Shown here: positions 4,341-22,128 of the stretch, one piece after another
How positions within the stretch are numbered: position 1 is the first letter of the stretch
How the letters are laid out: each line of letters begins with the position of its first letter
DNA from: a virus
Lineage: Duplodnaviria > Caudoviricetes
Virus record (IMG/VR): IMGVR_UViG_2833400001_000001
Span: 5,232-69,231 of that record
Length of the DNA stretch: 64,000 bases
Strand: one strand, 5' to 3'
Notes under the pieces: model-generated
The model's input: the letters and a program-made list of their open reading frames with translations, nothing else
Databases searched by the model: none
What the model was told of the DNA's origin: nothing
Made by a program: the position numbers and the translations under genes

Positions 4341-4346
4341 TTAGAT

Positions 4347-5192: not shown

Positions 5193-5224
5193 TTAAAAAG
5201 CCTGTTAAAAAACAGGCTTTATAC

Positions 5225-5404: not shown

Positions 5405-5427
5405 ATAATTTACCTTATAGTACGTTT

Positions 5428-5560
5428 TGAAGAACTGGGGAGTTGCCGCTCCCCAGATTATCACCTAGTAAGCTGGTAGACTTACTAACAACAAGGCGAT
5501 AAGGATAATTAGCTTAAACATTTTCTTATCCTCTTCAACCGTAAGGATTAAGCCTTACAC
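5428..5560 (+). ncRNA. Putative Sib-like antisense antitoxin RNA
   Basis: TTGACA(5392)-18-TATAGT(5416) promoter; 5' hairpin GGGGAG-TTGCCG-CTCCCC; spans the ibs-like ORF in antisense; 3' hairpin GTAAGG-ATTAAG-CCTTAC; ends approximate. Confidence 0.55.
5465..5521 (-). CDS. Ibs-like 18-aa hydrophobic toxin peptide MFKLIILIALLLVSLPAY
   Basis: ATG 5519-5521, TAG 5465-5467, GAGG RBS upstream; pattern matches the E. coli Ibs family (e.g. MMRLVIILIVLLLISFSAY, recalled). Confidence 0.75.
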   Translation of the reverse strand: MFKLIILIALLLVSLPAY

Positions 5561-5592
5561 TCACTTTCAAGCTGTCCCTTGAAAGTGAGATT

Positions 5593-5621
5593 ATTATATT
5601 GTATGTTTACATACAAATCAA
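5593..5621 (-). promoter_or_regulatory. Sigma70-type promoter with palindromic operator driving ibs-like + RHH genes
   Basis: Minus strand TTGATT-17-TATAAT; palindrome TTGTATGT-TT-ACATACAA (5599-5616) fills the spacer. Confidence 0.7.
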
Positions 5622-5760
5622 GAGATTTTTTTGATAAAGCCTGTTTTTTAACAGGCTTTATTTTTATCTAGTAGTAATACCTCATTAATTCAATTCTGGT
5701 CTGTTATTCCCTATCTCAACAATCTCTTTATATTCACAATTTAATTTCTTTGGAGCAAAA

Positions 5761-6384
5761 ATGTGGAACTCAATCGGTATTCCTAGCGTGCCAGGATTGC
5801 CAAAAAATATTGGTGATGCCGCAATTAAATTTGGTGGAGCATTATTAATTAATGCGCTATTTGATAATTATTGGGGCATTTTCGATCAAAATGGCATTCC
5901 GCTGTTATTGGCTGATAATGTCAAATCCGTAAGGTTTAAAAACTCCTCAAAAGTAGCTGAAGCACCTTTAGAAATGGGGTCATTCACTAATTACAACAAA
6001 GTTAACGATCCGTTTACTGTTGATGTGATGATGACAAAAGGCAGTGGTGGAGTAGTTGAGAGAAGTGCATTTTTAGCTTTGTTAGATGTATTTGCTAATA
6101 GTACCGATCTGTTTATGGTGATTACGCCAGAATCTATTTATCCAAATTGTAATATTATTGGCTATGACTACGCGCGAGAACATAACGATGGTGCTAGATT
6201 ATTGAAAGTAAATATCCATTTAAAAGAGATTAGAGAAGTACAAGCCGAATATACGGAAACTAAATCTGATACCTCTAGCGCTACACAAAAGCAAGGTAAA
6301 GTGTCACCGATAGAGCAAGGTGGCTCTTCTAGCAACAAATCTGTTTTGAAAGAATTATCCGAATTTTTTGGTAAGAAACCATGA
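5761..6384 (+). CDS. Phage baseplate/tail-tube initiator-like protein
   Basis: 207 aa; APLEMGSFTNYNKV motif; first gene of baseplate cluster. Confidence 0.65.
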   Translation: MWNSIGIPSVPGLPKNIGDAAIKFGGALLINALFDNYWGIFDQNGIPLLLADNVKSVRFKNSSKVAEAPLEMGSFTNYNKVNDPFTVDVMMTKGSGGVVERSAFLALLDVFANSTDLFMVITPESIYPNCNIIGYDYAREHNDGARLLKVNIHLKEIREVQAEYTETKSDTSSATQKQGKVSPIEQGGSSSNKSVLKELSEFFGKKP

Positions 6385-6689
6385 GTATTTATCAGATTCC
6401 ATTAGCCAGCACACCTAATCAAGAACTTACAGTTAATGTTGGTGGGCAGAATATCGGCATTACACTAAATACACGCTTGAATAACGAGCTTTACATCTCA
6501 GTTACAGCTGATGATAAGCAAATTATTAATAATCGTATTTGTCGCAACAAAACAAAGCTAATTAATGCGGAATATCAAGACATTAACGGAGAATTAGTCT
6601 TTTTAGACTCGCAAGGTAATTCAGATCCAAATTGGAAAGAATTAAATTCTCGCTATTTATTATATTGGGTTGATAAAGATGAGTTTTAA
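6381..6689 (+). CDS. Baseplate plug-like protein
   Basis: 102 aa; IPLASTPNQELTV N-terminus and SRYLLYW C-terminus; overlaps neighbours. Confidence 0.6.
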   Translation: MSIYQIPLASTPNQELTVNVGGQNIGITLNTRLNNELYISVTADDKQIINNRICRNKTKLINAEYQDINGELVFLDSQGNSDPNWKELNSRYLLYWVDKDEF

Positions 6690-7566
6690 TAAAAAGCGTT
6701 TAAAAGTCACTCTCTATCTTGGTGAAAAAGGAAAATCATTTGATGACAACGGTAAAAATACAGTTGTTTTAGAGAATTTTCGTGTTTCTGCAATGGTGCA
6801 AAGTGGCAACGGTTCTGGTGCTTCTCCAACCGCTAAAATAATGATATGGGGGTTGGGTAAAAACATCATTAATCAAGTCACAAAAATACACTGGAACACA
6901 GAACAATCACAGCTTAACAGCATTAAATTAGAAGCGGATAATGGTGATGGTGTTTATTATGTAGTGTATCAAGGAACGATTTCTTTTGCTTATCCCAACT
7001 TTGGATCTGCTCCTGAACACATCTTAACTATTGATTCCGTTACAGCCTTAAATCATCAAGTTTTGCCTACTCAACCAACAAGTCATAACGGTTCTGCTGA
7101 TGTTGCGGATATGATTAAAACGCTATGTGACAGTATGGGAATGAAATTTGAGAACAATGGTGTAAATATTAAGCTATCAAATCCTTATCTACCACAAACC
7201 GCATTAGAGAAAGTAAGACAAATTTGCGAAAGTGCTAACATCAGTATGTATCTTGATAAAGATACCATTGCTATTGCACTTAAAGATCAACCACGCAAGA
7301 CTAAAATTGCCGTTTTATCACCAAATACAGGGCTTATCGGTTATCCAGTGCCTAATCTACAGGGCATAACATTAAAAGCGCTATACGATCAAAGTGTTAT
7401 CTTTGGTGGTTTAATAGAAATTAAGGATAGTCAAATTGAAATGGCCAATGGGCAGTGGAGAGTGTTTGGTATTACTTATTATTTAGAAAGTGAATTACCA
7501 AGTGGACGGTGGGAAATGGAAATACAAGCCGCTAGTCCGACAGGAGGTGCGAGAATTGCAAAATAA
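6679..7566 (+). CDS. Baseplate hub protein
   Basis: About 295 aa; LSPNTGLIGYP motif; precedes spike gene; ATG at 6679. Confidence 0.65.
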   Translation: MSFNKKRLKVTLYLGEKGKSFDDNGKNTVVLENFRVSAMVQSGNGSGASPTAKIMIWGLGKNIINQVTKIHWNTEQSQLNSIKLEADNGDGVYYVVYQGTISFAYPNFGSAPEHILTIDSVTALNHQVLPTQPTSHNGSADVADMIKTLCDSMGMKFENNGVNIKLSNPYLPQTALEKVRQICESANISMYLDKDTIAIALKDQPRKTKIAVLSPNTGLIGYPVPNLQGITLKALYDQSVIFGGLIEIKDSQIEMANGQWRVFGITYYLESELPSGRWEMEIQAASPTGGARIAK

Positions 7567-8185
7567 TAATTTCGCTCTTATGAATATAGAGCAACTATTC
7601 AATAAAGATTACAACTTCATCATATCCAGCCTAATAAACCGCATTCAAACCGTCACATTAGTTCAAGTTAAAGCCGTTAATGTAACAGGAGTTAATCCTG
7701 TTGGTACAGTTGATGTGCAACCAATGGTAGCGCAGCTTGATGGGCAAGGTGGTATACATCCGCATGGAATTATTTTTAATATTCCTTACTTTAGGTTACA
7801 GGGTGGTTCTAACGCCGTTATTATCGATCCTAAAGTTGGCGATATTGGAATGTGCGGTTTTTGTAGCAGGGATATATCTTCAATTAAAAATACGAAAAAA
7901 CCAAGTTCACCTCAAAGCCGTCGGAAGTTTGATTATGCTGACGGCTTATTTTTTGGTGGGTTTTTAAATGGTACGCCAAGTCAGTATATCTTTTTCAAAG
8001 AAAGCGGAATTGATGTTATTTCTCCAGGCGAAGTGAAAATTAAGGCTTCTAAAATCACGTTAGATGCGCCTGTTAAAACAACATCTACTATTGATTCTGA
8101 TGGTGATATGACTGCTGGCAGCATATCAGTACAAAACCACATACATCCAGGTGATAGTGGTGGAACAACAGGAAAACCTCAGTAG
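7490..8185 (+). CDS. Baseplate spike (Gp138-type); real start probably TTG 7556
   Basis: GTVDVQP, NIPYFRLQGG, DPKVGDIG motifs and C-terminal HIHPGDSGG. Confidence 0.8.
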   Translation: MNYQVDGGKWKYKPLVRQEVRELQNNNFALMNIEQLFNKDYNFIISSLINRIQTVTLVQVKAVNVTGVNPVGTVDVQPMVAQLDGQGGIHPHGIIFNIPYFRLQGGSNAVIIDPKVGDIGMCGFCSRDISSIKNTKKPSSPQSRRKFDYADGLFFGGFLNGTPSQYIFFKESGIDVISPGEVKIKASKITLDAPVKTTSTIDSDGDMTAGSISVQNHIHPGDSGGTTGKPQ

Positions 8186-8192
8186 GTGGCTA

Positions 8193-8543
8193 ATGGAAAC
8201 GTTATTTTTACATCCAAATACATGGGATTTGGCGTTAGATGATGGTGGAAATATTGCTTTAGCTAAAGATCCATACTCAAAAGCTCAAGATGTTGCTAGT
8301 GCGATAAAGCTATTTAAAGGTGAGTTGTACTACAACACGAAAAAAGGAATACCGTACTTTGAAGAAACGCTAGGTCAGAAACAATCTTATGCGTTGTATA
8401 AATATCGCTTAGAAAAGGCAGCTTTAACAGTTCCTGATGTCGTTAGTGCAAGAGCAAATATTACAGGGAAAGCTGGACGCGTATTAAGCGGACAAGTGTT
8501 TTTTACTGATGAAAAAGGTAAGGAGTTGAGTGTACAGCTATGA
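8193..8543 (+). CDS. Baseplate wedge gp25/W-like protein
   Basis: TWDLALDDGGNIA, LFKGELYYNTKKGIPY motifs; between spike and J-like gene. Confidence 0.7.
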   Translation: METLFLHPNTWDLALDDGGNIALAKDPYSKAQDVASAIKLFKGELYYNTKKGIPYFEETLGQKQSYALYKYRLEKAALTVPDVVSARANITGKAGRVLSGQVFFTDEKGKELSVQL

Positions 8544-9724
8544 GTTTACCAGATATTCAATTTACGCCAGAAGGCGTCATTTTGCCAACAGAAGAAGATA
8601 TTTTAAACGGATTGTTTGATATTTTTGATACTGCGTTTAGTAGCAAGTTAAACAGAAACTTAGAAACACCACAAGGCCAACTTATCACATCACTTACCGC
8701 AATCATTGCTGATAAAAATAATCAAATTGCCTGGCTAGCTAATAATCTCGATCCGACATTTAGTGACGGTCGAATGCAAGATGCAATTGGTAATATTTAT
8801 TTTTTATCACGCAAAGGACAAATAAATTCAACTGTAGTTTGTGAGTTTACTGGTATGGCTGGAACAGTAATACCGAAAGGCTTTGAGCTTGTTGATAACA
8901 ATGGAAATTCTTGGTTTTTGAATAAAGAAATATCTATATTATCTAGCGGCACAGTGACAGGAGAACTGACGGCAGCTGGTGTATATAGTGCAGAAAAAAA
9001 CACGATTACTACAATTAAGAGTGCTATTGTTGGCTTAGATAGAGTAACTAATCAAGAAGCGGCTATTATCGGTATTGAAAAAGAAAATCGAGCTGATTTC
9101 GGCACTAGAATCAAAAATAGTGTGGCGAAAAACTCGCAGGGTATGTTGGGTTCTATTTATTCTAACGTATCTGATTTAACAGGCGTTTTAGATTGTTACG
9201 TTGTTGATAATGTCAAAGATACACCGATTACTGTTGGCGTAACAAATTACACGCTTACACCGCATAGTGTTTATGTTGCTGTTGTTGGTGGTGATGAAGC
9301 AGAGATCGCAAAAAATATTTGGATCTACACAGGGAATGGTTGCGATTATAACGGTAATACAACAGTCAATGTTACAGATGATAACTACCAAACACCAAAA
9401 CCGACATATGAAGTTAAGTTTATGCGCCCAAATCCAACACCAATCTATTTTAGAGTCAAAGTAAGACAAGGTGCGCAATTAAATTATGAAAGTGCGGTAA
9501 AAGAAGCGATTATTAATGCATTTAGTAGAGAAACACTCAATAAAATAGGTAGTCAGTTGTATGCAATGACTTATGCAAGTGACATCATCACTGCACTATC
9601 AGGAAGTAAGCTACTTGATATTGATGTGTCTTTATCAAGAGATAATTATGCTGATTATGTTGAGTTAGGAATAGATCAATATCCTATTGTGTCATCAGAT
9701 AGCATTGAGGTGATATTAGTATGA
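8540..9724 (+). CDS. Baseplate J/gp47-like protein
   Basis: 394 aa; ETPQGQL, DGRMQDAIG, PHSVYVAVVGG, GCDYNGNTTV motifs. Confidence 0.85.
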   Translation: MSLPDIQFTPEGVILPTEEDILNGLFDIFDTAFSSKLNRNLETPQGQLITSLTAIIADKNNQIAWLANNLDPTFSDGRMQDAIGNIYFLSRKGQINSTVVCEFTGMAGTVIPKGFELVDNNGNSWFLNKEISILSSGTVTGELTAAGVYSAEKNTITTIKSAIVGLDRVTNQEAAIIGIEKENRADFGTRIKNSVAKNSQGMLGSIYSNVSDLTGVLDCYVVDNVKDTPITVGVTNYTLTPHSVYVAVVGGDEAEIAKNIWIYTGNGCDYNGNTTVNVTDDNYQTPKPTYEVKFMRPNPTPIYFRVKVRQGAQLNYESAVKEAIINAFSRETLNKIGSQLYAMTYASDIITALSGSKLLDIDVSLSRDNYADYVELGIDQYPIVSSDSIEVILV

Positions 9725-10338
9725 TTGATGTCGATAAAACAATAATCAGCCAATACGCCAATAGCCCAATTATCTGCAATTTCATTGAAAGCCTTAATAC
9801 TTGTATCGATCCAAGTAAGAATATTGATGATTTTTACAATTTGATCTGGAATCTAAACACAGCAAAAGGAATTGGACTAGATATTTGGGGGAATATCGTA
9901 GGAATAAACCGCTACATTTTAATTAATGAAAAAAATCAGTTTCTAGGCTCATCTTTGTCAGATAAAGATTTAGAAGATTTTAAGCTAAACACTAATTATC
10001 GAATGAATGATGAAATGTTTAGAAGCATGATTTTCATGAAAGCGTACAGCAATATCATCTACTGTACTGCACATCATATTAATCAATTACTCTCAAACTT
10101 ATTCAAAAAACGTGGACGAGCTTACTTTGTAAAAAATGGAACAATGAAAGCGAGATACGTTTTTGAATTTAATCTCTTACCAGTTGAAAAGGCAGTATTA
10201 ATCAGTACTGATCTATTGCCGCGGCCAACTGGCGTCCTCATAGATTATTACGAACCAGACATCACAAAAACGTTCGGTTTCATAGAAGCAGGATTAGCGC
10301 CATTCGGAGAGGGTGCTTTCTATATCGGCGACGCCTAA
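9721..10338 (+). CDS. Baseplate wedge protein (DUF2612-type)
   Basis: TIISQYANSP, TAKGIGLDIWG, LLPRPTGV motifs. Confidence 0.8.
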   Translation: MIDVDKTIISQYANSPIICNFIESLNTCIDPSKNIDDFYNLIWNLNTAKGIGLDIWGNIVGINRYILINEKNQFLGSSLSDKDLEDFKLNTNYRMNDEMFRSMIFMKAYSNIIYCTAHHINQLLSNLFKKRGRAYFVKNGTMKARYVFEFNLLPVEKAVLISTDLLPRPTGVLIDYYEPDITKTFGFIEAGLAPFGEGAFYIGDA

Positions 10339-10419
10339 TTACTAAATCAATTCAATTTTACACATAACCCACAGCAGCAATGTTGTGGGTTTTTTGTTTT
10401 CTGAAAACAGGGAAATGTC

Positions 10420-11493
10420 ATGAATACACCAAAACTCATTTCAAAGACGTGGGCTGAAAACGGCTTAAAAAATAGCATTCCTAACGATAGAGAAGTCGGA
10501 TTTTCTGATGAAAGGGCGACTTATGAAGAAGGATTTCCATCTATCACAATGACACCTATTGCGCAGGGTGGTAAAGCGCCATCAGGTAAAGATATGAACG
10601 GTATTTTGCATGAAATTACAGCTCATATCGTTTTCCAAAATAAAGGTGGAACGTATCAATTCAATCAAGATTTTGCTAATGAAATTGGTGGGTATGAAAG
10701 AGGATCTATATTAATCAGTGATGATTACACAACAGTATTTGTAAGCTTAGTTGATAACAATACATTAAATTTTAACACAGCCGAAGATTATTCTAGATAT
10801 TGGTCTGTTATTGCCACAACTGGTGTCGCACCGAAAGATCTAGATGAAACAAGCGAAAGTATAACAGATAAAGCAGGTCACTCTCACAAATTACCGATTG
10901 CGACATTATTCGCCAAAGGTATTACAAGTCTATATTCAGGCTATGATTTAGCTAGAGAGGATTTAGCTGCAACACCAAAAGCTATAAATACACTAAAAGC
11001 CTTTATAGATGCACTCGCATCTAATCAACAAAACTATATTCCTAACAGCAAAAAATCTAACTCATTAACATCACCAAGCGCTGACAATGTTGCTACTAGC
11101 TATGCAGTTAATCAAATTTATTCAGCGGTTGTTGCATTATTCAATGGTGATAGATCGGGATTTCAGAGTATTGTTAATTCGTGGGGTGTTTCAGGTATTA
11201 CGCCACTCGGTGTTTCATACGATTTTACTAATCCAAATGCATGGTGGATTAAGTTTGGCCCACTCTATGGAAATCTAATTATCCAAGGGGGACTGATCAA
11301 CGTGACTGGAACTGCTCGATGGTATAATTACCCCATCACTATGTCGAAAAGATTATGTGTAATAATCGGCGCTGCCACATCGCAAGAATGGGGTGTTGTC
11401 GATAGCGTACTTAGCGATACATCAAAATTTCAAGCGAGAAAAACTAATGATAGCTCAGGAACAAATTATTGGTACGCTATAATTGGAGCCTAG
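10420..11493 (+). CDS. Tail fibre: constant region plus currently expressed variable tip (cassette A, 11283-11493)
   Basis: N-term GFPSITMTP..GGKAP.GKDMNGIL baseplate anchor; HSHKLP and AATPKA fibre repeats; NLIIQGG junction coincides with the repeated crossover site. Confidence 0.9.
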   Translation: MNTPKLISKTWAENGLKNSIPNDREVGFSDERATYEEGFPSITMTPIAQGGKAPSGKDMNGILHEITAHIVFQNKGGTYQFNQDFANEIGGYERGSILISDDYTTVFVSLVDNNTLNFNTAEDYSRYWSVIATTGVAPKDLDETSESITDKAGHSHKLPIATLFAKGITSLYSGYDLAREDLAATPKAINTLKAFIDALASNQQNYIPNSKKSNSLTSPSADNVATSYAVNQIYSAVVALFNGDRSGFQSIVNSWGVSGITPLGVSYDFTNPNAWWIKFGPLYGNLIIQGGLINVTGTARWYNYPITMSKRLCVIIGAATSQEWGVVDSVLSDTSKFQARKTNDSSGTNYWYAIIGA

Positions 11494-11725
11494 CCAAGGG
11501 GGAGTCGTTAGAGCTAATGGAATGCCTATTCCTTGGAGTTTCACTTATCCAATTGTGTTATCCTCAAATTTATTATATGCAGATGTAATTAGATATGGTG
11601 GTGCAGGTGCATTCTCAGAGATTATTCAATATAGAGGGTTATCATATTTTACTTGGATAGATAAAGATTGCAGCAACAAAACTGGAGGAGGTGATATTGT
11701 TGGCGTTATTGTTGTTGGGGTCTAA
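11494..11725 (+). other. Silent tail-fibre tip cassette B (QGGVVRANG...VIVVGV*)
   Basis: Open frame from site to TAA; no own start codon or RBS. Confidence 0.85.
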
Positions 11726-11981
11726 CCAAGGGGTAGGTATAGTTAGAGTAAAAGCAACGAACGGGCTAGGTATAACGGTAAACTATCCTGTCAATTTATC
11801 TAAATTTTTGGGAGCAGTAATGACTCCAGAATCTGGGCAAATTGACAATACCAAACCTTACCCTACATTTGAGGGAACGAAATTAAGAAATGCAACAAAT
11901 ACTAGCATATATTATTACAATGATTACGAGAGCACAGAAATAGATAGCATTGTGAGTCTGTTTATTGTAGGTGTTAATTAG
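11726..11981 (+). other. Silent tip cassette C (QGVGIVRVK...FIVGVN*)
   Basis: Variant site CCAAGGGGTA; open to TAG 11979-11981. Confidence 0.85.
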
Positions 11982-11986
11982 TCTAG

Positions 11987-12227
11987 CCAAGGGGGAATGA
12001 TTGCCGATCTTATATCTAACAGACCTGTTTATTTGCCGATAAGCGTGAACAATATTTTTGGTGTTTGGGGTAGTGATGTTGCAGAATATCCCAACCCCAT
12101 CGTGTTTAATTTTAACTATTTCACAAGTATATCTTTTTCAGTAAATGGCGACAGAATAAAATCAAAGATGGATGATCTACACACAGGTACTAATATGTGG
12201 TGTAGATGGATTTGTGTTTGTATTTAA
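11987..12227 (+). other. Silent tip cassette D (QGGMIADL...ICVCI*)
   Basis: Open frame from site to TAA 12225-12227. Confidence 0.85.
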
Positions 12228-12230
12228 TAA

Positions 12231-12444
12231 TTAAACGCCAAGAAATAGTACATTACAAAGCGGTTTATCTGGAAGTCGCGGATCTGATGTTATTCTGTAC
12301 TCAGACTGACTTATAGCACTAATACCGAGCGGAACCGATACGCCGCCAACGTCGGTTGCGACAGACGATATACAACGTTCAGAGAATTGTATTGCAAATT
12401 TTGCAACGGTATTTCTATTTTCACACCAAATCAATCCCCCTTGG
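12231..12444 (-). other. Silent tip cassette E (QGGLIWCEN...LFLGV*)
   Basis: Minus-strand site; converges on cassette D. Confidence 0.85.
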
Positions 12445-12450
12445 CTCGCA

Positions 12451-12682
12451 TTAAATACCAACAACGTAGTACATCGCTGGCCAGTTCGGAGCTTTAGTCG
12501 GAGATTCTGGCGAATAAAACCTTATGCGAACTGAAGAATTATTAGTTGTATTTTCATAGATATTGAAACTCATTGTTAATGATCCAATGTGCATCATATC
12601 CATATAAAACAAATGTGTTAATTTAATTGGGGATGTCACCGTTGCTTCTGCATTAGAATCTGATTTGATCAGTCCCCCTTGG
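12451..12682 (-). other. Silent tip cassette F (QGGLIKSD...YVVGI*)
   Basis: Shares CCAAGGGGGACTGATCAA with the expressed site. Confidence 0.85.
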
Positions 12683-12931
12683 CTAGACACCAACGCTTAT
12701 CCAGTGAGTAAGTATATTTTTTAGATTTTTATCACCGGCACTAGCTACAAACCAAAAATCACGCAGTCCTAAATTTTCAGCAGTTTTCGATAAATAGTAA
12801 TCGTTTATTCCAAGTCCAAGTTCTCCGCTAGCATAGAAATGACTTTTTTGTATGAAATTGCTAATGATATTTTAGAGATGCTGTAACCTTTACCATCATA
12901 GTTAAAAGCATGTATAAAAGCTCCCCCTTGG
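12683..12931 (-). other. Silent tip cassette G (QGGAFIHAFNY...WISVGV*)
   Basis: Translated by hand, open frame to TAG at 12683-12685; absent from ORF track. Confidence 0.85.
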
Positions 12932-12938
12932 CTAGGCG

Positions 12939-13158
12939 TTAGATGCCAGCAACAACATACCTACACCATACATTCGATGTTGCTCCCGACCTTCGTCCAG
13001 ACACTCTAAATGATGACAAACTATAATCGTAAAAACTTATTGACAATGGATCTGTTACAGCAACATCATTAGCTAATACACATAGCATTTGACTAGATAA
13101 ATTTATGGGTATAGTAACTCTTGTACCGTTGACAATATCAAAAAGGATTCCCCCTTGG
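12939..13158 (-). other. Silent tip cassette H (QGGILFDIVNG...YVVAGI*)
   Basis: Translated by hand, open frame to TAA at 12939-12941; absent from ORF track. Confidence 0.85.
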
Positions 13159-13308
13159 CTCGATAAATCAGAATAAAAATGACACTGAAAGCCATTAAAA
13201 AAAACATTAAAAAAATGAAATAAGTATCAAATAAGTAACACGTTTAAACATAGATTAATAAGGCTTTAAATGTGTTTTAAATTTTTAAATAAGTAACATT
13301 TAAGTAAC

Positions 13309-14334
13309 TTATTTTAATAGATTTATTGTTTTTCTTAAGTGAATCAATGTCTTATGTGTATATACTGCATCTCCAACGTTTGATGATGCGTGTCCGAGTA
13401 ATTTATCTCGAGCAACTTTGTTTGCTCCAGCGGCGTCAAGTAATGTTGCAACTGTGTGTCGGCAATCGTGTGTGCTATGCTTTGCTCTGATTGCACGCAT
13501 TACTCGTGCAAATTGTGATGCTGCTTGCGAGTAAATTAGAGCCGTTAAATCTTGATTAACAAATAAGTATTTTGCGCGCTTATTCTCGTGCATTTTTCGT
13601 TCAATAATGGGGAGTATACGTGGGTGTATTGGGATAATACGGATGCCGGCTTTTGTCTTTGCCGTCACAATATCAAAATACTTTTGCTTAAGATTTACGC
13701 AAGACCGCTTTAGTTGCAACAACTCACTGACTCGCATACCGGTGTACAGTAAAATTAGCGTTAAATCGGTGTTGACTGTCGTACATTGCCACACTCGATT
13801 AATTTGTTGGCGTGAAAATATTTTATGTGGGTTTTTCGGAGTATTTTTGCCCATTTGCAAATATTGTCCATATGACTTATCTACCCATTCGTTAATAATA
13901 GCGTATGAAAATAGTTGGTTAATCAAAGATCTTACTTTTTTAAGACTTGCGTATGACAATCCTTTTTCTCGCATTGTATCTAGCACTGTCTGTAGATGAC
14001 GATATTTAATCTTATTAATCGGCATTGCGCTAATCGTTGCAAGGTGATTATAGCTATTTTGATAACTTGATGCGGTTGCAATAGATACTTGTTTTGTGTG
14101 AATTGGATACCAGAGCTGATAAACTTTTGCGAGAGTTACGCTAGGCTCTGGCTTGTCTTGCTGATTGTAATTAGCTAGTGCAGTTAATGCTTCGTCTCTT
14201 GTTGCGTAGTATCCAATTACATTATAAATCTGTTTTTTCTTTTCATTATATCCCACGGTCTTGCGAGCAACATAAGGTTTGCGTCTTGATCCACTTAACT
14301 TCACAACTGAGCCATAGCCATTTGGTAGTCTCAT
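13309..14334 (-). CDS. Tyrosine recombinase, probable shufflon invertase
   Basis: Catalytic set TGMRVSEL, KTKAG, HDCRH, LGH, VYTH; directly beside the inverted-site cluster. Confidence 0.85.
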   Translation of the reverse strand: MRLPNGYGSVVKLSGSRRKPYVARKTVGYNEKKKQIYNVIGYYATRDEALTALANYNQQDKPEPSVTLAKVYQLWYPIHTKQVSIATASSYQNSYNHLATISAMPINKIKYRHLQTVLDTMREKGLSYASLKKVRSLINQLFSYAIINEWVDKSYGQYLQMGKNTPKNPHKIFSRQQINRVWQCTTVNTDLTLILLYTGMRVSELLQLKRSCVNLKQKYFDIVTAKTKAGIRIIPIHPRILPIIERKMHENKRAKYLFVNQDLTALIYSQAASQFARVMRAIRAKHSTHDCRHTVATLLDAAGANKVARDKLLGHASSNVGDAVYTHKTLIHLRKTINLLK

Positions 14335-14426: not shown

Positions 14427-15068
14427 ATGGCACTAACACATTTAATTGTTATTGATCCAAAGAGTGGAGAAAGAGTGACATCTTATGTTGTACCAATTCA
14501 CGGTAAAACATATGAGGTGTTACTAGATAAAGCGCAAGCAGACTATCCCGGATATCTATATTTGCGAGATAATGATGGTGAGTTGCAAGCGATATTAACG
14601 CGTCAAGATGCGCATTGGTTTAACAATAAAGTTCAGATTAGACCATCTCAAATTCACGACTGGGATGGTTCTGCGTGGGTGATTAACGAAGAAAAAAAAG
14701 CAGAGTTACTTAAAAATCAACAAAGTGCAACTTGGGAGCACATTAAAGCAGAAAGGACAAGACGTACTGAAGGTGGTGTCTATGTTAAATCAGTTGATAA
14801 ATGGTTTCACACAGATCAGCCGAGCCGTATTCAGTATTTAAGTATTCAACAAATGCCGACATTACCAGAAAGTTTTGCTTGGAAAACTATGGATAATACA
14901 TTTGTTAATATGACAAAAGCATTGATTGATGAATTGATTTTATCTTTGCGCATTAAAGAACAAGCTGATTTTGCAAACGCAGAGCGACATAAAGCGGCAA
15001 TGTTAGAGAGCGATAACCCCGCAGACTATGACTATTCAGCAGGATGGAGTGACATTTATGACGAATAA
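14427..15068 (+). CDS. Tail fibre assembly-type protein (DUF4376-like)
   Basis: HDWDGSAW, WEHIKAER..GGV...KWFHTD, WKTMDN, AERHKAAM motifs; homologous to 56853-57590. Confidence 0.75.
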   Translation: MALTHLIVIDPKSGERVTSYVVPIHGKTYEVLLDKAQADYPGYLYLRDNDGELQAILTRQDAHWFNNKVQIRPSQIHDWDGSAWVINEEKKAELLKNQQSATWEHIKAERTRRTEGGVYVKSVDKWFHTDQPSRIQYLSIQQMPTLPESFAWKTMDNTFVNMTKALIDELILSLRIKEQADFANAERHKAAMLESDNPADYDYSAGWSDIYDE

Positions 15069-15523
15069 TGTTTATCTTGCTCTGTATAAAGGAAAACGTA
15101 GCGGTAAATCGCTTTATGCACACTGGTGTAGATTGTGTGATTTGTTAATTCGCAAATGCACCCGCGGTAAATACAGTCACTGCGAAATTGCGGTGAAAAA
15201 GGATGGATTTTATGAGTGTTACAGTTCATCTGTGCGTGACGGTGGTGTGCGTAAAAAAGTGATTGATGTTGATGATGGCAAAGTGGGATTTGATTTTGCT
15301 CAATGGCGTGTCTGAATCACAGATTGTCTATTATTATCAACTGACGAAAGAAAAAAAATACGACTGGTGGGGTGCATTAGGACTGATTTTTTTAATTTCA
15401 GAACGGCGTGATAAATATTTTTGTAGCGAGTGGTGCGCAAGAGCAATCAACTATGGCTGCGAAGGATGGCGATTCTCTCCTAATCACTTGGCTGCTATTT
15501 TTAGGGGGTGTGCAATGAAATAA
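15058..15523 (+). pseudogene. Frameshifted phage protein (YSHCE / KYDWWG / KYFCSEWC, permuted papain-like pattern)
   Basis: ORFs 15028-15315 and 15263-15523 join into one protein if one A is removed from GGCAAAGTGG at 15280-15282. Confidence 0.7.
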
Positions 15524-15658
15524 ATGATATAAGACGGCAGTGTAATACGCGTTCCGCCACGCATTACACCCGATTATACAGACATCTCCTGCATAAACGT
15601 TGCCGCCACCCTGCAAGGCAGGCGGATTATAACAGAAATCACTTAAAGTGAGATTATT

Positions 15659-15793
15659 ATGCAAGGTAAAATCCAAGAATGTCGTTGTAAGTGCTGCAAA
15701 AAGCTACTGGCACGAACAATAAATGCACAATTTTTAGAGATTAAGTGTGTGCGTTGTAAGACAGTAAATACATTTACTCAAGTAATCCGTTAA
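15659..15793 (+). CDS. com: Com-family zinc-finger regulator (44 aa)
   Basis: MQGKIQECRCKCCKKLLAR...LEIKCVRCKTVN: two CxxC pairs, upstream of a DNA modification gene as in Mu-like phages; not in ORF track. Confidence 0.85.
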   Translation: MQGKIQECRCKCCKKLLARTINAQFLEIKCVRCKTVNTFTQVIR

Positions 15794-15851: not shown

Positions 15852-16688
15852 ATGGCAAAACAATTCAAACAAGCTCCACTGCCTTTTATTGGGCAGAAAA
15901 GAATGTTCATTAATCATTTCACAAAAATTTTAAATGAGTATATCAATGATGACGGCGAAGGTTGGACAATTATTGATGTATTTGGTGGAAGTGGTTTACT
16001 TGCTCACACAGCTAAGCATTTAAAACCAAAAGCGCGTGTAATTTATAATGATTTTGATGGCTATACTGAACGCTTGAAACACATTGATGAAATTAACCAG
16101 TTACGTCAAATATTAAGCGAATTATTAGAGGACTGTCCTCGACAGAAACGTCTTGATATTGCTAGCCGTCATAAAGTTATTGAGGCGATTGAGCAGTTTA
16201 AGGGATACAAAGACCCACATATTTTATGTGCTTGGTTGTTGTTTAGCGGACAACAAATAAACTCTCTTAATGAGTTGTATCGCCACGGTTTTTATAATTG
16301 CGTCAGACAAAGCGATTATCTTGATGCAGAAGGCTATCTTGATGGTATTGAGGTTGTTAATGAAAGTTTTCGCACGTTAATGCCTCAATTTTTACAAGAT
16401 AAGAAAGTATTATTCGTGTTGGATCCGCCTTATTTATGCACGCAGCAAGCAAGCTACAGGCAAGAAAGTTACTTTGATTTAATTGATTTTCTTGAGTTGA
16501 TTCGTTTGACTCGCCCTCCGCACATCTTTTTTAGTTCAACAAAATCAGAATTCATGCGGTTTGTAGATTGGCTAATCGCAACAAAAGGAAGTAATTGGAA
16601 GTCTTTTGCAGGTTATCAGAGAGTTATCGTCCAAACATCTACAAGTTATAGCGGACGGTATGAGGATAACTTAATTTATAAAATTTAA
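15852..16688 (+). CDS. DNA adenine methyltransferase-like protein (D12 class; Mu-like phage terminal gene)
   Basis: APLPFIGQKR, DVFGGSG (SAM binding), LDPPY (motif IV); ATG 15852 after AAGGA RBS. Confidence 0.85.
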   Translation: MAKQFKQAPLPFIGQKRMFINHFTKILNEYINDDGEGWTIIDVFGGSGLLAHTAKHLKPKARVIYNDFDGYTERLKHIDEINQLRQILSELLEDCPRQKRLDIASRHKVIEAIEQFKGYKDPHILCAWLLFSGQQINSLNELYRHGFYNCVRQSDYLDAEGYLDGIEVVNESFRTLMPQFLQDKKVLFVLDPPYLCTQQASYRQESYFDLIDFLELIRLTRPPHIFFSSTKSEFMRFVDWLIATKGSNWKSFAGYQRVIVQTSTSYSGRYEDNLIYKI

Positions 16689-16697
16689 ATGGCGTTT

Positions 16698-16780
16698 AAA
16701 ACCACATAAAGTGAGATTTTTGCGTTTTTAATATTCTCATTTTATGTGGTTTCATTTCTCAAATTATGCGGCTTGCTACA
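16698..16780. promoter_or_regulatory. Mu-type right end: sites R3 (16699-16718, inverted), R2 (16733-16752), R1 (16755-16774), terminal CA
   Basis: R2 ATTCTCATTTTATGTGGTTT vs R1 TTTCTCAAATTATGCGGCTT 15/20 at 22-bp period; R3 reverse complement 18/20 to R2; R1 ends 6 bp before ...GCTACA. Confidence 0.8.
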
Positions 16781-19700
16781 GCCAATGCCAAAAAAATGCC
16801 CTCAAAGAAACACGTAGAATTTTAGACCAATTTGCTGAACGTTGTGGTGATCGTGTCTGGCAAACGGCAATTACTCACGCTGGTTTGCAAACGTTAAAGC
16901 AATTATTACGGCAAACAGCAAGAAAAAATACAGCAGTCGCCTGTTATTGGACGCATGGAAAAAATCAAACTTCATTATTGTGGATAGTAGGCGATCAACG
17001 ACAATTTAATCAAAAAGGGCGTGTACCAACCAATCGAACTCAACGCAATATTTTACGGCAAGAAGATGAAATTGCTTGGCATAATGCTTATAGCATACAG
17101 ATTATTAGTGCATTAGCGGCGTTGTTGCACGATTTAGGCAAATCTAGTATCGGTTTTCAGGAAAAATTAAAACCACAAGCGCCTTTTTATGCTGATCCTT
17201 ATCGACATGAATGGATTTCGGTACGGATATTTGAAGCAATGATTCAAGGATGCCAAACCGATATGGAATGGCTAACACGCTTGGCGAATTGGGCGGAATA
17301 TCAGCAGCAAAATTCAAGTTGGTTGCAACAGATAAAGATAGAAGATCCAACACCAAAACAAGGGCGATTTGAACAGTTATCACCATTAGCGAAAACGATT
17401 ATTTGGTTAATTTCTTCACATCATAGGGTGCCGTATTTACCAGAATTTGCCGAAAAAAATAATAAGCGGAAAAAGGTATGGGAAACGGAAGTAGCGCACG
17501 ATTTAAAGCGTTTTTATCGGTTGTTATCAGCAAGTAATGGCTGGGTTGCTAATCCGCATAGTGAACATCCACAACCGAAGAAATTCTGGCGTTTTAATCA
17601 GTTAGTTTCAGATAGCTCTGCGTGGCAAAAAGCAATGACTCGTTGGGCAAATAAAGCCTTAAAACATACGTCGTTAATGAATTTAGTCAGCAATGTTGAA
17701 AATATTAGTGATCCTTTTTTATTGTTGTTGAGTAGATTGTCATTAATTACAGCTGATCACCATTATTCTTCACTTAATCCTAATCCTCAATTTGGAGAGA
17801 AGGATTTTCCTCTATTTGCGAATACAGATGCGAAAGGGCAGACGAAACAACGTTTAGATGAGCATTTGCTAGGTGTTTGTCAAAGTGCAGTGCGTTTTGC
17901 CCGTATTTTGCCAAGATTGAAAACATTGTTGCCAGCATTAACACATAAAAGTTTTAATAAACGGAGTGATATTGCTCGCTTTCAATGGCAGAATCGAGCT
18001 TTCGATTTAGCAAAACGATTACAAGCCAGTACTGAACAGCAAGGTTTTTTTGGCGTAAATATGGCGAGCACTGGATGTGGTAAAACTGTTGGAAATACTC
18101 GCATTATGTATGCACTCGCCAATCCGCAATTAGGGGCAAGGTTTACTATTGCTTTAGGATTAAGGGTATTAACTTTGCAGACAGGTAGAGCTTTAAAAGA
18201 TAAATTGCGATTAGATGATGATGCACTGGCTGTATTGGTAGGCGGTGATGCTGTTAATAAGTTATTTGCTTTACAGCAAGAAAAATCTGGTAGTGAATCT
18301 GTCGAAGATTGGCTGGAAATGGCACAAGTTGATGGCGGTATAGTTGGAGAGAGTGCGTTAGATAACCTTGCAGAATTTAATACATTGCTTGCTAATCATA
18401 AAGCGAAAAATTTATTACTTACCCCACTCGTTACCTGCACGATTGATTACTTGATGAATGCTAGTGAATGCTTGCGAGGTGGTAAACACATTGTGCCAAT
18501 ATTACGTTTATTGAGTGGTGATTTAATTCTAGATGAACCAGATGATTTTGATCAAAATGACTTGCCAGCCTTGAGCCGTTTAGTGCATCTAGCAGGATTA
18601 TTTGGCAGTAAAGTGTTGCTTTCATCTGCAACATTAACGCCAGATTTGGTGAGTGGTTTGTTTGAAGCTTATCAAGCAGGAAGAAATGTTTGGAATCAGA
18701 ATAATCAATTACCATCTCAAGGCGTTTGTTGTGCTTGGTTTGATGAATTTAATCAGCAAAGTTTTTCTTGTTCAGATCTCGCCAGTTATCAAGCACAGCA
18801 TCAAGAATTTGTTCAGCAAAGAATTAATAAATTGAAACAACAACCCACCAGACGTATGGCAAAAGTAATGTCTTTGCCTAGTGTTGCTGGTGGGGAAAAT
18901 CAAACACTGAATTGGCCGCTATTTGCTCAACATCTGTTACAACAAGCAATAGCATTTCATACCGAGTTTGCGATTAGTGATGATTCATCTACAAAACGAG
19001 TAAGTGTTGGCTTGCTACGGTTTGCGAATATTCGTCCAATGATTCCAACTATCCAAGCAATGTTGCAACAACAATGCCCAGAAAATACAGAAATCCATCT
19101 TTGTTGTTATCATTCACGCCAATTGTTGTTATTACGTAGCCGCTTAGAACAAAGTTTGGATCGCTTATTAACACGAAATGATCCACAGGCTTTATTTCAA
19201 CAACCTGAAATAAAATTAGCATTAGACAATAGCCAAAATGAAAATCATATTTTTATTGTAGTAGGCAGTCCGGTGACGGAAGTGGGACGTGATCATGATT
19301 ACGATTGGGCAATTATCGATCCGTCGTCAATGCGTTCTATTATCCAATTAGCTGGACGAGTGTGGCGACATCGTCCAGATAAAGTTGCAACAACGCCGAA
19401 TATTGCATTGTTACCAAGTAACTGGAAAGGGCTAAAAGGGCATCACTATACACGAGAAATTTTTTATCATCCCGGTTTTGAAAGCAGTGAACATCCTCTC
19501 ATTTCTCACCGTACACAAGATATTATTAACCCAGAACAACTTGCTGTTGTGGACGCAGTAGCGAGAATTGAAGCTCCAACTGAATTGGATGAGAATGCGA
19601 AGGCACAAAAAACGCTAGCAGAGTTAGAGCATAGTGTGATGAGAAAGATGTTTAATAGTTCTAGTTTAAATTATGTCAATGGCTATTGGCGTAGTGATAA

Positions 19701-20088
19701 TGCTAAATTAGCTGCACACTATACGTTGACTACGCCGTTTCGGGCCTCACAAAAAATGGAAGATTTTGTCTGTTTACCTGATGATGAAAGTTCGTGGGGT
19801 TATGCCTTTGCGTATAGTGAAAAAGCACATCAGAATTTATTCTCTTGTAATAAAGAGTGGCATAGGTTTCAGTATCAACCGATTAAAAATCAAAATTCAC
19901 TGATTAAGCCATGGCTTGTTTTTTCCTTAACAACAGCATTGGATGAGCTAACAGAAGCATTAAAGTTAAAAGATATTGAACAAACAGCGTTATCTTATGC
20001 AACCGTTTCATTAAGAAAAGATGAGCAAACAGAAGCAGTTTGGCAATTTAATGAGTTTTTAGGCTTTTGGCGACAGGAAGAGCAATAG
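16744..20088 (+). CDS. cas3: Type I-F Cas2-Cas3 fusion helicase-nuclease; native N-terminus replaced by phage-end sequence
   Basis: SQCQKNALKETRRILDQFAER (Cas2), LHDLGK (HD), STGCGKT, ILDEPD, SAT, QLAGRVWRH; first 12 codons come from the Mu-type end. Confidence 0.95.
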   Translation: MWFHFSNYAACYSQCQKNALKETRRILDQFAERCGDRVWQTAITHAGLQTLKQLLRQTARKNTAVACYWTHGKNQTSLLWIVGDQRQFNQKGRVPTNRTQRNILRQEDEIAWHNAYSIQIISALAALLHDLGKSSIGFQEKLKPQAPFYADPYRHEWISVRIFEAMIQGCQTDMEWLTRLANWAEYQQQNSSWLQQIKIEDPTPKQGRFEQLSPLAKTIIWLISSHHRVPYLPEFAEKNNKRKKVWETEVAHDLKRFYRLLSASNGWVANPHSEHPQPKKFWRFNQLVSDSSAWQKAMTRWANKALKHTSLMNLVSNVENISDPFLLLLSRLSLITADHHYSSLNPNPQFGEKDFPLFANTDAKGQTKQRLDEHLLGVCQSAVRFARILPRLKTLLPALTHKSFNKRSDIARFQWQNRAFDLAKRLQASTEQQGFFGVNMASTGCGKTVGNTRIMYALANPQLGARFTIALGLRVLTLQTGRALKDKLRLDDDALAVLVGGDAVNKLFALQQEKSGSESVEDWLEMAQVDGGIVGESALDNLAEFNTLLANHKAKNLLLTPLVTCTIDYLMNASECLRGGKHIVPILRLLSGDLILDEPDDFDQNDLPALSRLVHLAGLFGSKVLLSSATLTPDLVSGLFEAYQAGRNVWNQNNQLPSQGVCCAWFDEFNQQSFSCSDLASYQAQHQEFVQQRINKLKQQPTRRMAKVMSLPSVAGGENQTLNWPLFAQHLLQQAIAFHTEFAISDDSSTKRVSVGLLRFANIRPMIPTIQAMLQQQCPENTEIHLCCYHSRQLLLLRSRLEQSLDRLLTRNDPQALFQQPEIKLALDNSQNENHIFIVVGSPVTEVGRDHDYDWAIIDPSSMRSIIQLAGRVWRHRPDKVATTPNIALLPSNWKGLKGHHYTREIFYHPGFESSEHPLISHRTQDIINPEQLAVVDAVARIEAPTELDENAKAQKTLAELEHSVMRKMFNSSSLNYVNGYWRSDNAKLAAHYTLTTPFRASQKMEDFVCLPDDESSWGYAFAYSEKAHQNLFSCNKEWHRFQYQPIKNQNSLIKPWLVFSLTTALDELTEALKLKDIEQTALSYATVSLRKDEQTEAVWQFNEFLGFWRQEEQ

Positions 20089-20185: not shown

Positions 20186-20995
20186 GGTCTAAGCTGCCTA
20201 TGCGGCAGTAAAGGCACAGGAAGAGGTACCTGCTCACATCATGGATTTCTAAGCTGCCTATGCGGCAGTAAAGAAACATCTATTGATTTGCATGGTATTC
20301 ATTATTTTCTAAGCTGCCTATGCGGCAGTAAAGTTCGCCATTAAACATTTAGGATGTTTTAATGATTTCTAAGCTGCCTATGCGGCAGTAAAGAATGGGT
20401 TTATGCCGGTGGGGAAAAGTTACCATTTCTAAGCTGCCTATGCGGCAGTAAAGTGCGGATCAAGTCTTTAATTGGGCGGATAACTTTTTCTAAGCTGCCT
20501 ATGCGGCAGTAAAGCATTACCAGTTTCGTAGTGACTAGGTGTAATCTTTCTAAGCTGCCTATGCGGCAGTAAAGGAGTACCGAGAAAGCTACATCAAGAT
20601 CTACATTTTCTAAGCTGCCTATGCGGCAGTAAAGTTATTCGGACTCTAACCAAGGGGGAACGCTAGTTTCTAAGCTGCCTATGCGGCAGTAAAGGTCTCA
20701 TTGTACTGTCCGCCTAGTACGTTCGTTTTCTAAGCTGCCTATGCGGCAGTAAAGCACTATCAGGTAAACCTGTTATGCTTAGAAATTTTCTAAGCTGCCT
20801 ATGCGGCAGTAAAGCTAGTAGTAAAAAGCCAAGAAAGAAAAATAATGTTTCTAAGCTGCCTATGCGGCAGTAAAGTGAGTATTGCTACATTGATATTAGG
20901 CGAAAGTTTTCTAAGCTGCCTATGCGGCAGTAAAGTAAGTGTGTAATTCGTCGCACCAACAGTGATTTTTCTAAGCTGCCTTTATGGCAGTGTAG
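20186..20995 (-). CRISPR. Type I-F CRISPR array, 14 repeats (28 bp, CTTTACTGCCGCATAGGCAGCTTAGAAA), 13 spacers of 32-33 bp
   Basis: Repeats counted by hand; Cas6f-type hairpin CTGCC-GCATA-GGCAG; both terminal repeats degenerate; orientation supported by CC PAMs of two near-matches. Confidence 0.98.
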
Positions 20996-21087: not shown

Positions 21088-22128
21088 CTATTTAGTTGGA
21101 TTGACTACACGAGTCTTACGGATGTAACGTTGTGTCATACGTACAGACTTATGACCGAGTTGTTTTTGTGCAGATTCATCTGTGAAAGCAAGAGCAGTAT
21201 CAGTACCCGCCTTTGCACGTAAATCTCGAAATTGAAACTCGGCAATTTCGTCTGCCAACTCAGGGTATTTTTCCAAAGCTACATTACGAAGATTGCGAAA
21301 TCTTTCACTAAGCGTTGTTCTCCTTAATTTACCCCCTCTAGAATGTAGAAATAGATAGCCTGGGTGAGTTTCCATGCGCCTTGTTATAATGTCTGCGAGC
21401 TGGCCAACTAATTTTATTCTGACTTTTGCTTTAGTCTTTTGTTGCGTGATATGCAAAATGCCGTCAAAAATATGGTTTGTGTGAATATTGCAGACATCAA
21501 TCGGGCGTTGTCCGGTTAGATAAGCGATATCCATTAAGTCGCGCATATCCTGATCCGCAAGTAGATAGAGTTTATTGTAGATATGGTCCTCGATATACAC
21601 ATCTCTAGTTTCTAACGTATATTTAGTTACCCCATCAGTTGGACAAATTAGATTTGTGTAGCCCCACTCACGTGCGAATGACCATATTCTATGAAACATT
21701 TCAACTTCATAGTTTGCTGATCTGGGAGTATCTTTTCGCCACTCAAGATACATCTTGATGTGCTTAGCTTGGATTTTTTCGAGCTGAATTGGAGGGTCTC
21801 CGAAAAAAGCCATTAGTCTATTTGTTGCCCATCTATAGTTGTCTTGTGTAGCTTTTGCTTTATTGTCTAATTGAGAGTTTAGATAACGAGTAGCGACAGT
21901 GATAAATGTTGTAATTTCGGTTTGAGTGGTTCTATCGAGATTTAACTCAGCGGCTTTTAGTACTGCAATATGCTTATCATTAGTTTTAAGAGAGATTTCT
22001 TTTCCGTCAGCGTTGACGTAGTAATAGTAATTAACATATTTACCATTTTTACGTTTTCTGCGACGGCAGAGTAGGTGTTGCGGTAAGCCATTATTCTCTC
22101 TGTTTCGAGGTCTTGCCATTTTGATCAC
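21088..22128 (-). CDS. int: Phage integrase (tyrosine recombinase); likely start 22119
   Basis: TGQRPIDV, QQKT, FRDLRAK, LGH, TQRY motifs; at the prophage edge. Confidence 0.9.
   Translation of the reverse strand: MIKMARPRNRENNGLPQHLLCRRRKRKNGKYVNYYYYVNADGKEISLKTNDKHIAVLKAAELNLDRTTQTEITTFITVATRYLNSQLDNKAKATQDNYRWATNRLMAFFGDPPIQLEKIQAKHIKMYLEWRKDTPRSANYEVEMFHRIWSFAREWGYTNLICPTDGVTKYTLETRDVYIEDHIYNKLYLLADQDMRDLMDIAYLTGQRPIDVCNIHTNHIFDGILHITQQKTKAKVRIKLVGQLADIITRRMETHPGYLFLHSRGGKLRRTTLSERFRNLRNVALEKYPELADEIAEFQFRDLRAKAGTDTALAFTDESAQKQLGHKSVRMTQRYIRKTRVVNPTK

Follow-up and report, generated by a model that had tools for sequence, protein, structure and literature searches.

The stretch analysed here (the window; 64,000 nucleotides) comprises bases 5232-69231 of one 69,231-bp virus record (IMGVR_UViG_2833400001_000001; Duplodnaviria, Caudoviricetes) and contains a boundary at which the segment 16699-16780, judged from its sequence the right end of a Mu-type transposable prophage, abuts cas2-3, the nuclease-adaptation gene of a type I-F CRISPR locus. 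The phage side of this boundary carries three copies of a 19-nt motif, TTCTCAWWTTATGYGGYTT, all within 76 bp: an R2-type site (16734-16752, plus strand) and an R1-type terminal site (16756-16774, plus strand), which are direct copies with a start-to-start spacing of 22 bp, and an R3-type copy in inverted orientation relative to both (16699-16717, minus strand). The terminal hexamer GCTACA (16775-16780, plus strand) follows R1, and the junction reads ...GCGGCTTGCTACA, with its last A at 16780, followed by GCCAATGCCAAAAAAATGCC; this A can be assigned either to the phage (as a CA end) or to the host (as part of AGC), an ambiguity of one base. Immediately beyond it lies GCCAA (16781-16785, plus strand), the right copy of a 5-bp target-site duplication. 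With up to three mismatches allowed, no further copy of the motif occurs anywhere in the 64-kb window. Since 0.57 matches are expected by chance in dinucleotide-shuffled sequence, and three were reached in 2 of 100 shuffles, the stronger argument is the clustering of the sites within 76 bp together with the presence of the same motif at phage ends of other genomes; by their pattern, the repeats would be of the transposase-binding type. An identical right junction is found in two further sources, namely the sibling assembly JTJT01000007.1, which is 100% identical over cas2-3, and a contig of DRR768366. A search of viral contigs for the exact right-end pattern gave 0 matches, and exact-protein look-ups of the upstream genes and of the chimeric protein described below found none on record.

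Beyond the boundary lies a cas2-3 gene that lacks its own beginning. In a DNA alignment with three empty-site contigs, homology begins at AGCCAATG, window position 16780, and all DNA to the left is foreign, so that the open reading frame (ORF) at 16744-20088 (plus strand; 1114 codons) consists of 12 phage-derived codons joined to cas2-3 from codon 7 onward (native part 16780-20088). The product matches the Pfam families Cas3_I-F_Cas2 (9e-38, profile positions 7-79 of 79), Cas3_HD and Cas3-like_C_2, and its Cas2, HD and helicase/C-terminal domains are intact. Its nearest database relative, the Cas3f of Gallibacterium salpingitidis (P0002; 1108 residues), shares 99% identity with the window protein in an alignment that begins only at residue 13 of the latter, the N-terminus being MWFHFSNYAACY-SQC in the window and MNILLVSQC in this relative. 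The relatives displayed in the comparison all begin with MNILLVSQC or a close variant, and 62 distinct I-F loci of Gamma- and Betaproteobacteria begin without exception with M-N and four hydrophobic residues, then S/A/C, Q/E and C. In the empty-site contigs, which encode the intact protein, the stop codon of cas1 (321 aa) overlaps the ATG of cas2-3 (ATGA); within the window, cas1 is absent upstream of cas2-3, and a com-like ORF and a D12 methylase gene are found there instead. The features of a type I-F Cas2-3 are thus present except for the conserved N-terminal strand (MN-h-h-h-h-SQC, h being a hydrophobic residue) and a start overlapping the end of cas1, and these two absences are the lesion itself and no argument against Cas3f homology. 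The first-pass annotation, made from the window alone, had already described two direct and one inverted related site with a 22-bp period, a GCTACA end directly before GCCAA, a missing Met-hydrophobic first strand and the lack of cas1 upstream; motif search recovered the sites at the same positions, the end is read at 16780/16781, and the comparisons above confirm the other two points. It had also named strains without the prophage as a comparison that could refute it, and those strains carry MNILLVSQC directly after cas1, not MWFHFSNY. A native alternative N-terminus was rejected for the same reason, relatives without the prophage beginning MNILLVSQC directly after cas1.

The left end of the element is found on another record. 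A search of viral contigs for the start of cas2-3 followed by TGT and a purine, a pattern that excludes the empty site (TGTC), yielded a single record, the provirus IMGVR_UViG_2833400001_000004 (L112; 12,210 bp). On L112, a peptidase U32 gene and a HigB/HTH pair lie upstream of cas1 (3225-4190), and cas1 is followed by seven cas2-3 codons ending in GCCAA (4206-4210) and then by TGTATAG; the cas2-3 start, from 4187 onward, reads ATGAATATCTTGTTAGTTAGCCAA and gives way to the phage end TGTATAGAACCAC / TGTATAGAACCACTTAAAATGAGAA. Three sites in one orientation follow (L1 at 4217-4235, an L2-like site near 4344-4362 and L3 at 4386-4404), with a gap of about 127 bp after L1. The ends of Mu are laid out as R1, R2 and inverted R3 on the right and as L1, a gap, L2 and L3 on the left, which matches the layout found here. 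Behind these sites, a repressor gene (4440-5135, minus strand; S24 and Mu DNA-binding HTH domain) diverges from a Ner-like gene (5223-5432; HTH_35), the gene for MuA (5436-7466; 676 aa; DDE_2 at 3e-58, HTH_Tnp_Mu_1, HTH_Tnp_Mu_2 and Mu-transpos_C) and that for MuB (7477-8400; AAA_22 and Phage-MuB_C), after which come Gam (8635-9144), an RdgC-like gene (9854-10765), GemA (10831-11301) and Mor (11767-12210). The transposition genes MuA and MuB are therefore encoded on the left-junction record and not within the window. The host flank of L112 is G. salpingitidis, with 98.8% identity to an empty-site contig.

A three-way alignment and comparison of the junctions show GCCAA next to both phage ends, ahead of the left TG and behind the right CA, with a single copy in the empty site and no host DNA lost between the two junctions. 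The ends of the element thus read 5'-TG...CA-3' (TGTATAG on L112, GCTACA in the window), and the duplicated target is coding sequence rather than a transfer RNA (tRNA) gene or an attachment (att) site, as suits a 5-bp duplication at a non-specific target. Mu prefers N-Y-S-R-N targets, and GCCAA fits this consensus. The predictions of the first-pass annotation that GCCAA would be duplicated and that cas1, a few cas2-3 codons, GCCAA and TG would be found at a left junction were both borne out by L112, where Mu early genes follow. The exact complementarity of the two junctions suggests that L112 and the window come from one isolate.

A related prophage in Gallibacterium faecale (G002) provides independent evidence on the position of the terminus. 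Its segment spanning com, the methylase gene and the phage end shares 69% identity with the window as far as the final base of the query; the alignment conserves two sites, corresponding to R2 and R1, as well as GCTTGC-NACA, and the flanks of the two genomes split directly past ...ACA, at the point where homology to the empty site begins. The ends of this prophage lie on two contigs, C38 (L102 3430-3454) and C46 (L105). C38, which bears the left end, carries a MuA gene, in a region with 75% nucleotide identity to L112, together with a small ORF in the position of Ner and a divergent one in that of the repressor (the latter two assigned by position only). Three motif copies, 41 and 127 bp apart, follow the repressor-position ORF and are succeeded by TTCACA, so that the left-end site layout of L112 recurs in C38. 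In phage orientation, the junctions read ...TTGATGAT followed by TGTGAAG and ...GCGACA followed by ATGATGG, with ATGAT as the 5-bp duplication. These TG...CA ends and the ATGAT duplication indicate that this phage family transposes with 5-bp duplications, and they place the window terminus in register; by sequence, the G. faecale prophage is an independent insertion of a related phage.

The genes that lead up to the right end are also those of a Mu-type right arm. The last operon consists of a com-like zinc-ribbon gene (15659-15793, plus strand; 44 codons; Pfam Zn_ribbon_Com at 23.6 bits against a cut-off of 22.9), which has a nucleotide match to the com region of Haemophilus phage SuMu, and a gene for a D12-class N6-adenine DNA methyltransferase (15852-16688, plus strand; Pfam MethyltransfD12), which shows 68.5% nucleotide identity to SuMu gp53 and 69% to G. 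faecale C46. In Mu, Com is a translational activator of the downstream modification gene. The methylase gene is the last before the phage end, the position of mom in Mu, and com plus a DNA-modification gene thus form the last right-end operon here as in Mu, although the enzyme belongs to another family than Mom. The R3-type half-site CACWTAAAGTGAGAT recurs as a fourth copy (15640-15654, plus strand; two matches in the window against 0.01 expected) 5 nt before the com start codon and could be a regulatory rather than a transposase site. Upstream of it, a gp51-like gene (15028-15523, plus strand) is split by a frameshift into overlapping ORFs (15028-15315 and 15263-15523) that match the N- and C-terminal halves of SuMu gp51 with 54% identity each. 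It is preceded by a tail-fibre-assembly-like gene with a DUF4376 domain (14427-15068, plus strand), which occupies the position of SuMu gp50 (31% identity to the gp50 region by tblastn), has homologues in G. faecale and in the empty-site strain F150, and is the first gene of the stretch collinear with the SuMu right arm.

Adjoining this arm is a tail-fibre shufflon region (10420-14334), in which start-less fibre-tip cassettes are flanked by seven CCAAGGGGGA crossover sites, three on the plus strand (11280, 11491 and 11984) and four on the minus strand (12428, 12666, 12915 and 13142). The region occupies the place of the Mu G segment and Gin, and the tyrosine recombinase alongside (13309-14334; 341 aa; Pfam Phage_integrase) is best read, from its neighbourhood, as the shufflon recombinase.

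Taken together, it is very likely that a Mu-type phage transposed into the 5' end of cas2-3 in the type I-F locus of G. salpingitidis and severed the gene from cas1 and from its start signals, leaving little or no Cas2-3. Both junctions, the empty site and the Mu gene set agree with the earlier suggestion that a transposable prophage uncoupled the I-F nuclease/adaptation operon. Transposition by MuA and MuB would have inserted the phage in the seventh codon of cas2-3, between codons 6 and 8, and a 5-bp staggered cut would leave GCCAA on both sides; cas1 and the first seven cas2-3 codons would now stand at the far left end of the prophage, and the remainder of the gene, from 16780, behind the com-methylase module. 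What cas2-3 has lost comprises the AAGGAG ribosome-binding site inside the end of cas1, the ATG with its ATGA overlap, six N-terminal residues forming the first Cas2 strand, and the operon promoter. I-F interference needs the Cas2-3 nuclease-helicase, and spacer acquisition needs the Cas1-Cas2-3 complex. With little or no Cas2-3 made, both interference and acquisition would be off while the Csy genes remain intact elsewhere, and the insertion very probably switches off type I-F immunity.

This conclusion depends on whether the truncated gene can still be expressed. An alternative is that an active chimeric Cas2-3 is made from the ATG at 16744 by read-through from the phage com-methylase late operon, which would place the nuclease under phage control, as the first-pass annotation had suggested on the strength of an in-frame ATG without a clear ribosome-binding site. 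The ATG is indeed in frame, lies within the R2-type site and is the sole start following an in-frame TAA at 16729; the 1114-codon ORF is unbroken, the methylase gene ends 55 nt upstream on the same strand, and the residues now in place of strand 1, NYAACY, could substitute for it, being hydrophobic or aromatic. Additionally, the native part (1103 codons) differs from the empty-site allele at 55 codons synonymously and at 14 non-synonymously, with no stop or frameshift, and hence shows no decay. However, no purine-rich Shine-Dalgarno sequence precedes this ATG, which lies inside an 18-bp hairpin predicted for the R3/R2 inverted repeat (RNA fold of 16699-16752; -34.9 kcal/mol; z = -4.8 against shuffles), and no plus-strand promoter-like site was found within 16049-17076. 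The coupling to cas1 is lost, and the MN-h-h-h-h-SQC start that the phage codons replace is invariant in length and pattern in the 62 relatives. An AlphaFold2 prediction of the chimeric Cas2 domain with 33 homologues gave a poor model (mean pLDDT 53.7), in which residues 1-9 and 13-18 fall below 50. The com-mom operon of Mu is a late operon, silent in lysogens, which speaks against such read-through. The missing Shine-Dalgarno sequence, the ATG within a hairpin, the lack of a promoter-like site and the silence of com-mom in lysogens together indicate that cas2-3 would be silent or nearly so. Control of a chimeric nuclease by the phage is therefore the one proposal of the first-pass annotation that found no support, and an active chimera is improbable.

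The junction itself could also have arisen in other ways. If 16780 were a scar of deletion or illegitimate recombination between a decayed prophage and the CRISPR locus, it would have company, as such a scar exists in the same record (at about position 1424 of the contig, C1, from which the window is taken), the gp51-like gene is frameshifted and the region is decayed. Yet the break falls exactly after the conserved ...ACA terminus, which a related phage uses in another species too, and it is complemented by a left junction with the same 5 bp and no host DNA missing between the two, all of which makes a scar very unlikely. Equally far-fetched is the reading of cas2-3 and its array as cargo of the phage, a mini CRISPR system whose odd N-terminus would be native. 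Arrays and cas genes carried by phages have precedents, the source is a 69-kb virus record consisting almost wholly of phage genes, and a second prophage in the window bears a mini-array of its own (62554-62641). On the other hand, cas2-3 and the array are 97-100% identical to a chromosomal locus of G. salpingitidis, where they lie between cas1 and csy4-csy1 near housekeeping genes, and both flanking elements end at defined junctions, one being the Mu end at 16780 and the other a hybrid repeat (20968-20995) with its partner 46.7 kb further along in JTJT01000007.1. Site-specific integration through the tyrosine recombinase at 13309-14334, in place of transposition, would account for the Pfam Phage_integrase match and for the setting in F150, where a homologous recombinase, a DUF4376 gene and a small ORF adjoin a gene identified by eye as tRNA-Cys, an arrangement like that of an integrase prophage. 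In the window, however, the recombinase adjoins the seven inverted CCAAGGGGGA sites that flank the fibre-tip cassettes, as in a shufflon, and the junction lies in coding sequence, with a 5-bp duplication, TG...CA ends and MuA/MuB at the other end of the element, so that integrase-mediated insertion is scarcely credible.

Several observations weigh against the transposition reading or limit it. The undecayed native ORF, with its mostly synonymous differences, suits a recent insertion but also retained function. The two junctions stand on separate records, the 69-kb virus record and UViG_2833400001_000004, and two other draft assemblies break near 15243-15271, the continuity further left being provided by this record alone. 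The tail genes are of the DUF3383/DUF2612 type, and the phage record closest in its sheath protein is that of a prophage with an integrase. By tblastn, no ORF within contig positions 1-22100 had a hit in the 34.6-kb C38 prophage of G. faecale, so the structural modules are unrelated and kinship is confined to the ends, the early region and the right arm. Besides the frameshift in the gp51-like gene, the first 1.4 kb of C1 consists of unrelated minus-strand genes that abut the last ~100 codons of the major head gene: within C1 1205-1748, the head-gene remnant matches only positions 232-321 of a 321-position head-protein profile and is joined at about C1:1424 to a minus-strand gene that has lost its 5' part and is paralogous to ORF 692-1201. 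This junction is probably a deletion scar, which indicates that the prophage is probably defective. Thus, on sequence evidence the Mu-type identity of both ends is firm, and the integrity and make-up of the middle are not.

Set against known phages, the element resembles Mu and SuMu (NC_019455) in its c/ner/A/B/gam/gemA/mor early region and TG...CA termini, in three transposase-type sites per end with Mu spacing, in its 5-bp N-Y-S-R-N duplication, and in com with a DNA-modification gene as the last operon, the right arm having 67-69% nucleotide identity to SuMu gp51, com and methylase. It differs from Mu in bearing a D12 adenine methylase in place of Mom, tail and baseplate genes of the DUF3383/DUF2612 type in place of gp39-48, and, where Mu has the G segment and its serine invertase Gin, a multi-site shufflon accompanied by a tyrosine recombinase; unlike Mu and SuMu, the interior of this copy appears damaged.

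On the other side of cas2-3, the locus is interrupted a second time. The window holds the leader-distal part of a I-F array (20186-20995, minus strand; 14 repeats and 13 spacers), which in intact relatives would be transcribed from the minus strand with the csy operon. In the complete Gallibacterium genome CP103875.1 (L091), the order is cas1, cas2-3, array and then the convergent csy4 to csy1, a layout that explains the reversed repeats in the window. Here the array ends in a degenerate repeat, next to which lies a lambdoid prophage with its integrase gene at 21088-22128. The sibling assembly JTJT01000007.1 shows where this second prophage stops: about 46.7 kb on, at a hybrid repeat, beyond which come four spacers, then the leader and an undamaged csy4 to csy1. 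The right end of the prophage is thus located about 3.7 kb past the window and not at 62550, and the csy genes are present beyond the window. The hybrid repeats that bound it (20968-20995 in the window and L111 16264-16291 in JTJT01000007.1) share the common core GCTGCC. With the att sites assigned by sequence only, the second prophage is one that integrated inside an I-F CRISPR repeat, splitting the array into 13 distal spacers beside cas2-3 and four spacers that keep their link to the leader and csy4 to csy1. In the type II-A system of Streptococcus pyogenes, Varble et al. (2021) reportedly described a prophage integrating into a CRISPR repeat. The arrangement in Gallibacterium is similar in that the prophage is bounded by hybrid repeats and separates the array from its leader and effector operon, and it differs in concerning the element neighbouring the Mu-type insertion, a type I-F repeat and a lambdoid Pasteurellaceae phage. 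A search of phage collections for a free relative of this second prophage gave weak integrase matches only. One strain thus shows two integration routes into one immune locus, a Mu-type insertion in cas2-3 and a prophage inside a CRISPR repeat.

Some of the remaining spacers resemble the prophages that flank them. A scan of all array spacers against the record gave three partial matches preceded by CC, the protospacer-adjacent motif (PAM) of type I-F systems. The spacer at 20515-20546 (minus strand) matches C1:2136-2167, in the Mu-like prophage region upstream of the window, at 28 of 32 positions with a 5'-CC PAM, and that at 20936-20967 (minus strand) matches the baseplate J gene of the Mu-like prophage region (window 9226-9257) at 25 of 32, again with a 5'-CC PAM. 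A third (20394-20425) matches the second prophage (38189-38220, minus strand) at 23 of 32 with a CC PAM. Shuffled spacers gave 0.03 hits of at least 23 matches per spacer, before any PAM requirement.

Imperfect spacers of this kind have been studied in Pseudomonas aeruginosa PA14, in which a I-F spacer that matches the Mu-like prophage DMS3 imperfectly leads to autoimmunity, and DMS3 lysogens in the laboratory overcome it when cas genes mutate or when CRISPR sequence is lost in deletions with phage ends as boundaries (Suttenfield et al., 2024, PMC11406979); the conflict between DMS3 and the type I-F system of PA14 was also described by Heussler et al. (2015, PMC4436051). The Gallibacterium case would, by analogy, fit this autoimmunity picture. 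The two cases share the I-F subtype, a temperate phage that transposes, and a spacer that matches the prophage imperfectly. Unlike DMS3 in PA14, the present case is natural and comes from the Pasteurellaceae, the resident prophage is a simple insertion in cas2-3 with both junctions intact and no deletion, and self-targeting is here a putative driver, not an observed one. Loss of the nuclease would remove the self-targeting risk from imperfect CC-PAM spacers, which could account for the retention of the insertion. It is possible, if only as a tentative reading, that the Mu-like insertion is a selected outcome, an imperfectly recognised phage having persisted only where its own insertion or a later transposition knocked out the nuclease gene, and that Mu-like phages repeatedly escape in nature by landing in cas3. 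The use of a CRISPR repeat as attachment site by the second prophage points the same way. The 4 and 7 mismatches of the spacers against the Mu-like prophage count on the other side, since they make earlier self-targeting only possible. If selection did act in this manner, temperate phages would regularly dismantle type I immunity by integration.

Inactivation of cas genes by mobile elements and the conflict between Mu-like phages and I-F systems are already known; what is new is a well-resolved natural instance. It offers an example of a transposable phage disabling the I-F nuclease-adaptation gene in which both junctions, the empty site and the duplication are resolved and imperfect spacers are retained, and it links the work on CRISPR autoimmunity in DMS3/PA14 to wild Pasteurellaceae of poultry. 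The lineage could be used to ask how a Csy complex behaves without Cas2-3, what becomes of an uncoupled Cas1 and whether restored cas2-3 is toxic to the lysogen. Annotations of this lineage should count the locus as interrupted, the 1114-residue 'Cas3f' being a chimeric frame.

Other disruptions of cas2-3 and differences among arrays were seen alongside. In two other Gallibacterium loci without the prophage, L091 10963-14288 (CP103875.1) and L092 7425-10750, cas1 is present and gene calling splits cas2-3 into a pair of ORFs (one of 890 aa, the other of 241 or 226 aa), which suggests an independent frameshift in the same gene. The annotated start of P0043, a Cas3f of Gallibacterium anatis (1011 aa, 117 member sequences), lies past the Cas2 domain (MKQIAWINGYTIQ...), and this protein could be a natural Cas2-less form or the result of a mis-called start. 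JTJT01000007.1 is without two spacers of the window array (20454-20546), including the self-matching one with 28 of 32 matches. The mini-array at 62554-62641, in the right arm of the second prophage, comprises two repeats and one spacer, the plus strand being that of CRISPR RNA (crRNA) sense; nothing in the record is a convincing target of this spacer (the best match is 23 of 32, no PAM), and the gene that follows the mini-array, from 62723, encodes a protein of 652 aa with HATPase_c_3/HSDR_N_2 matches.

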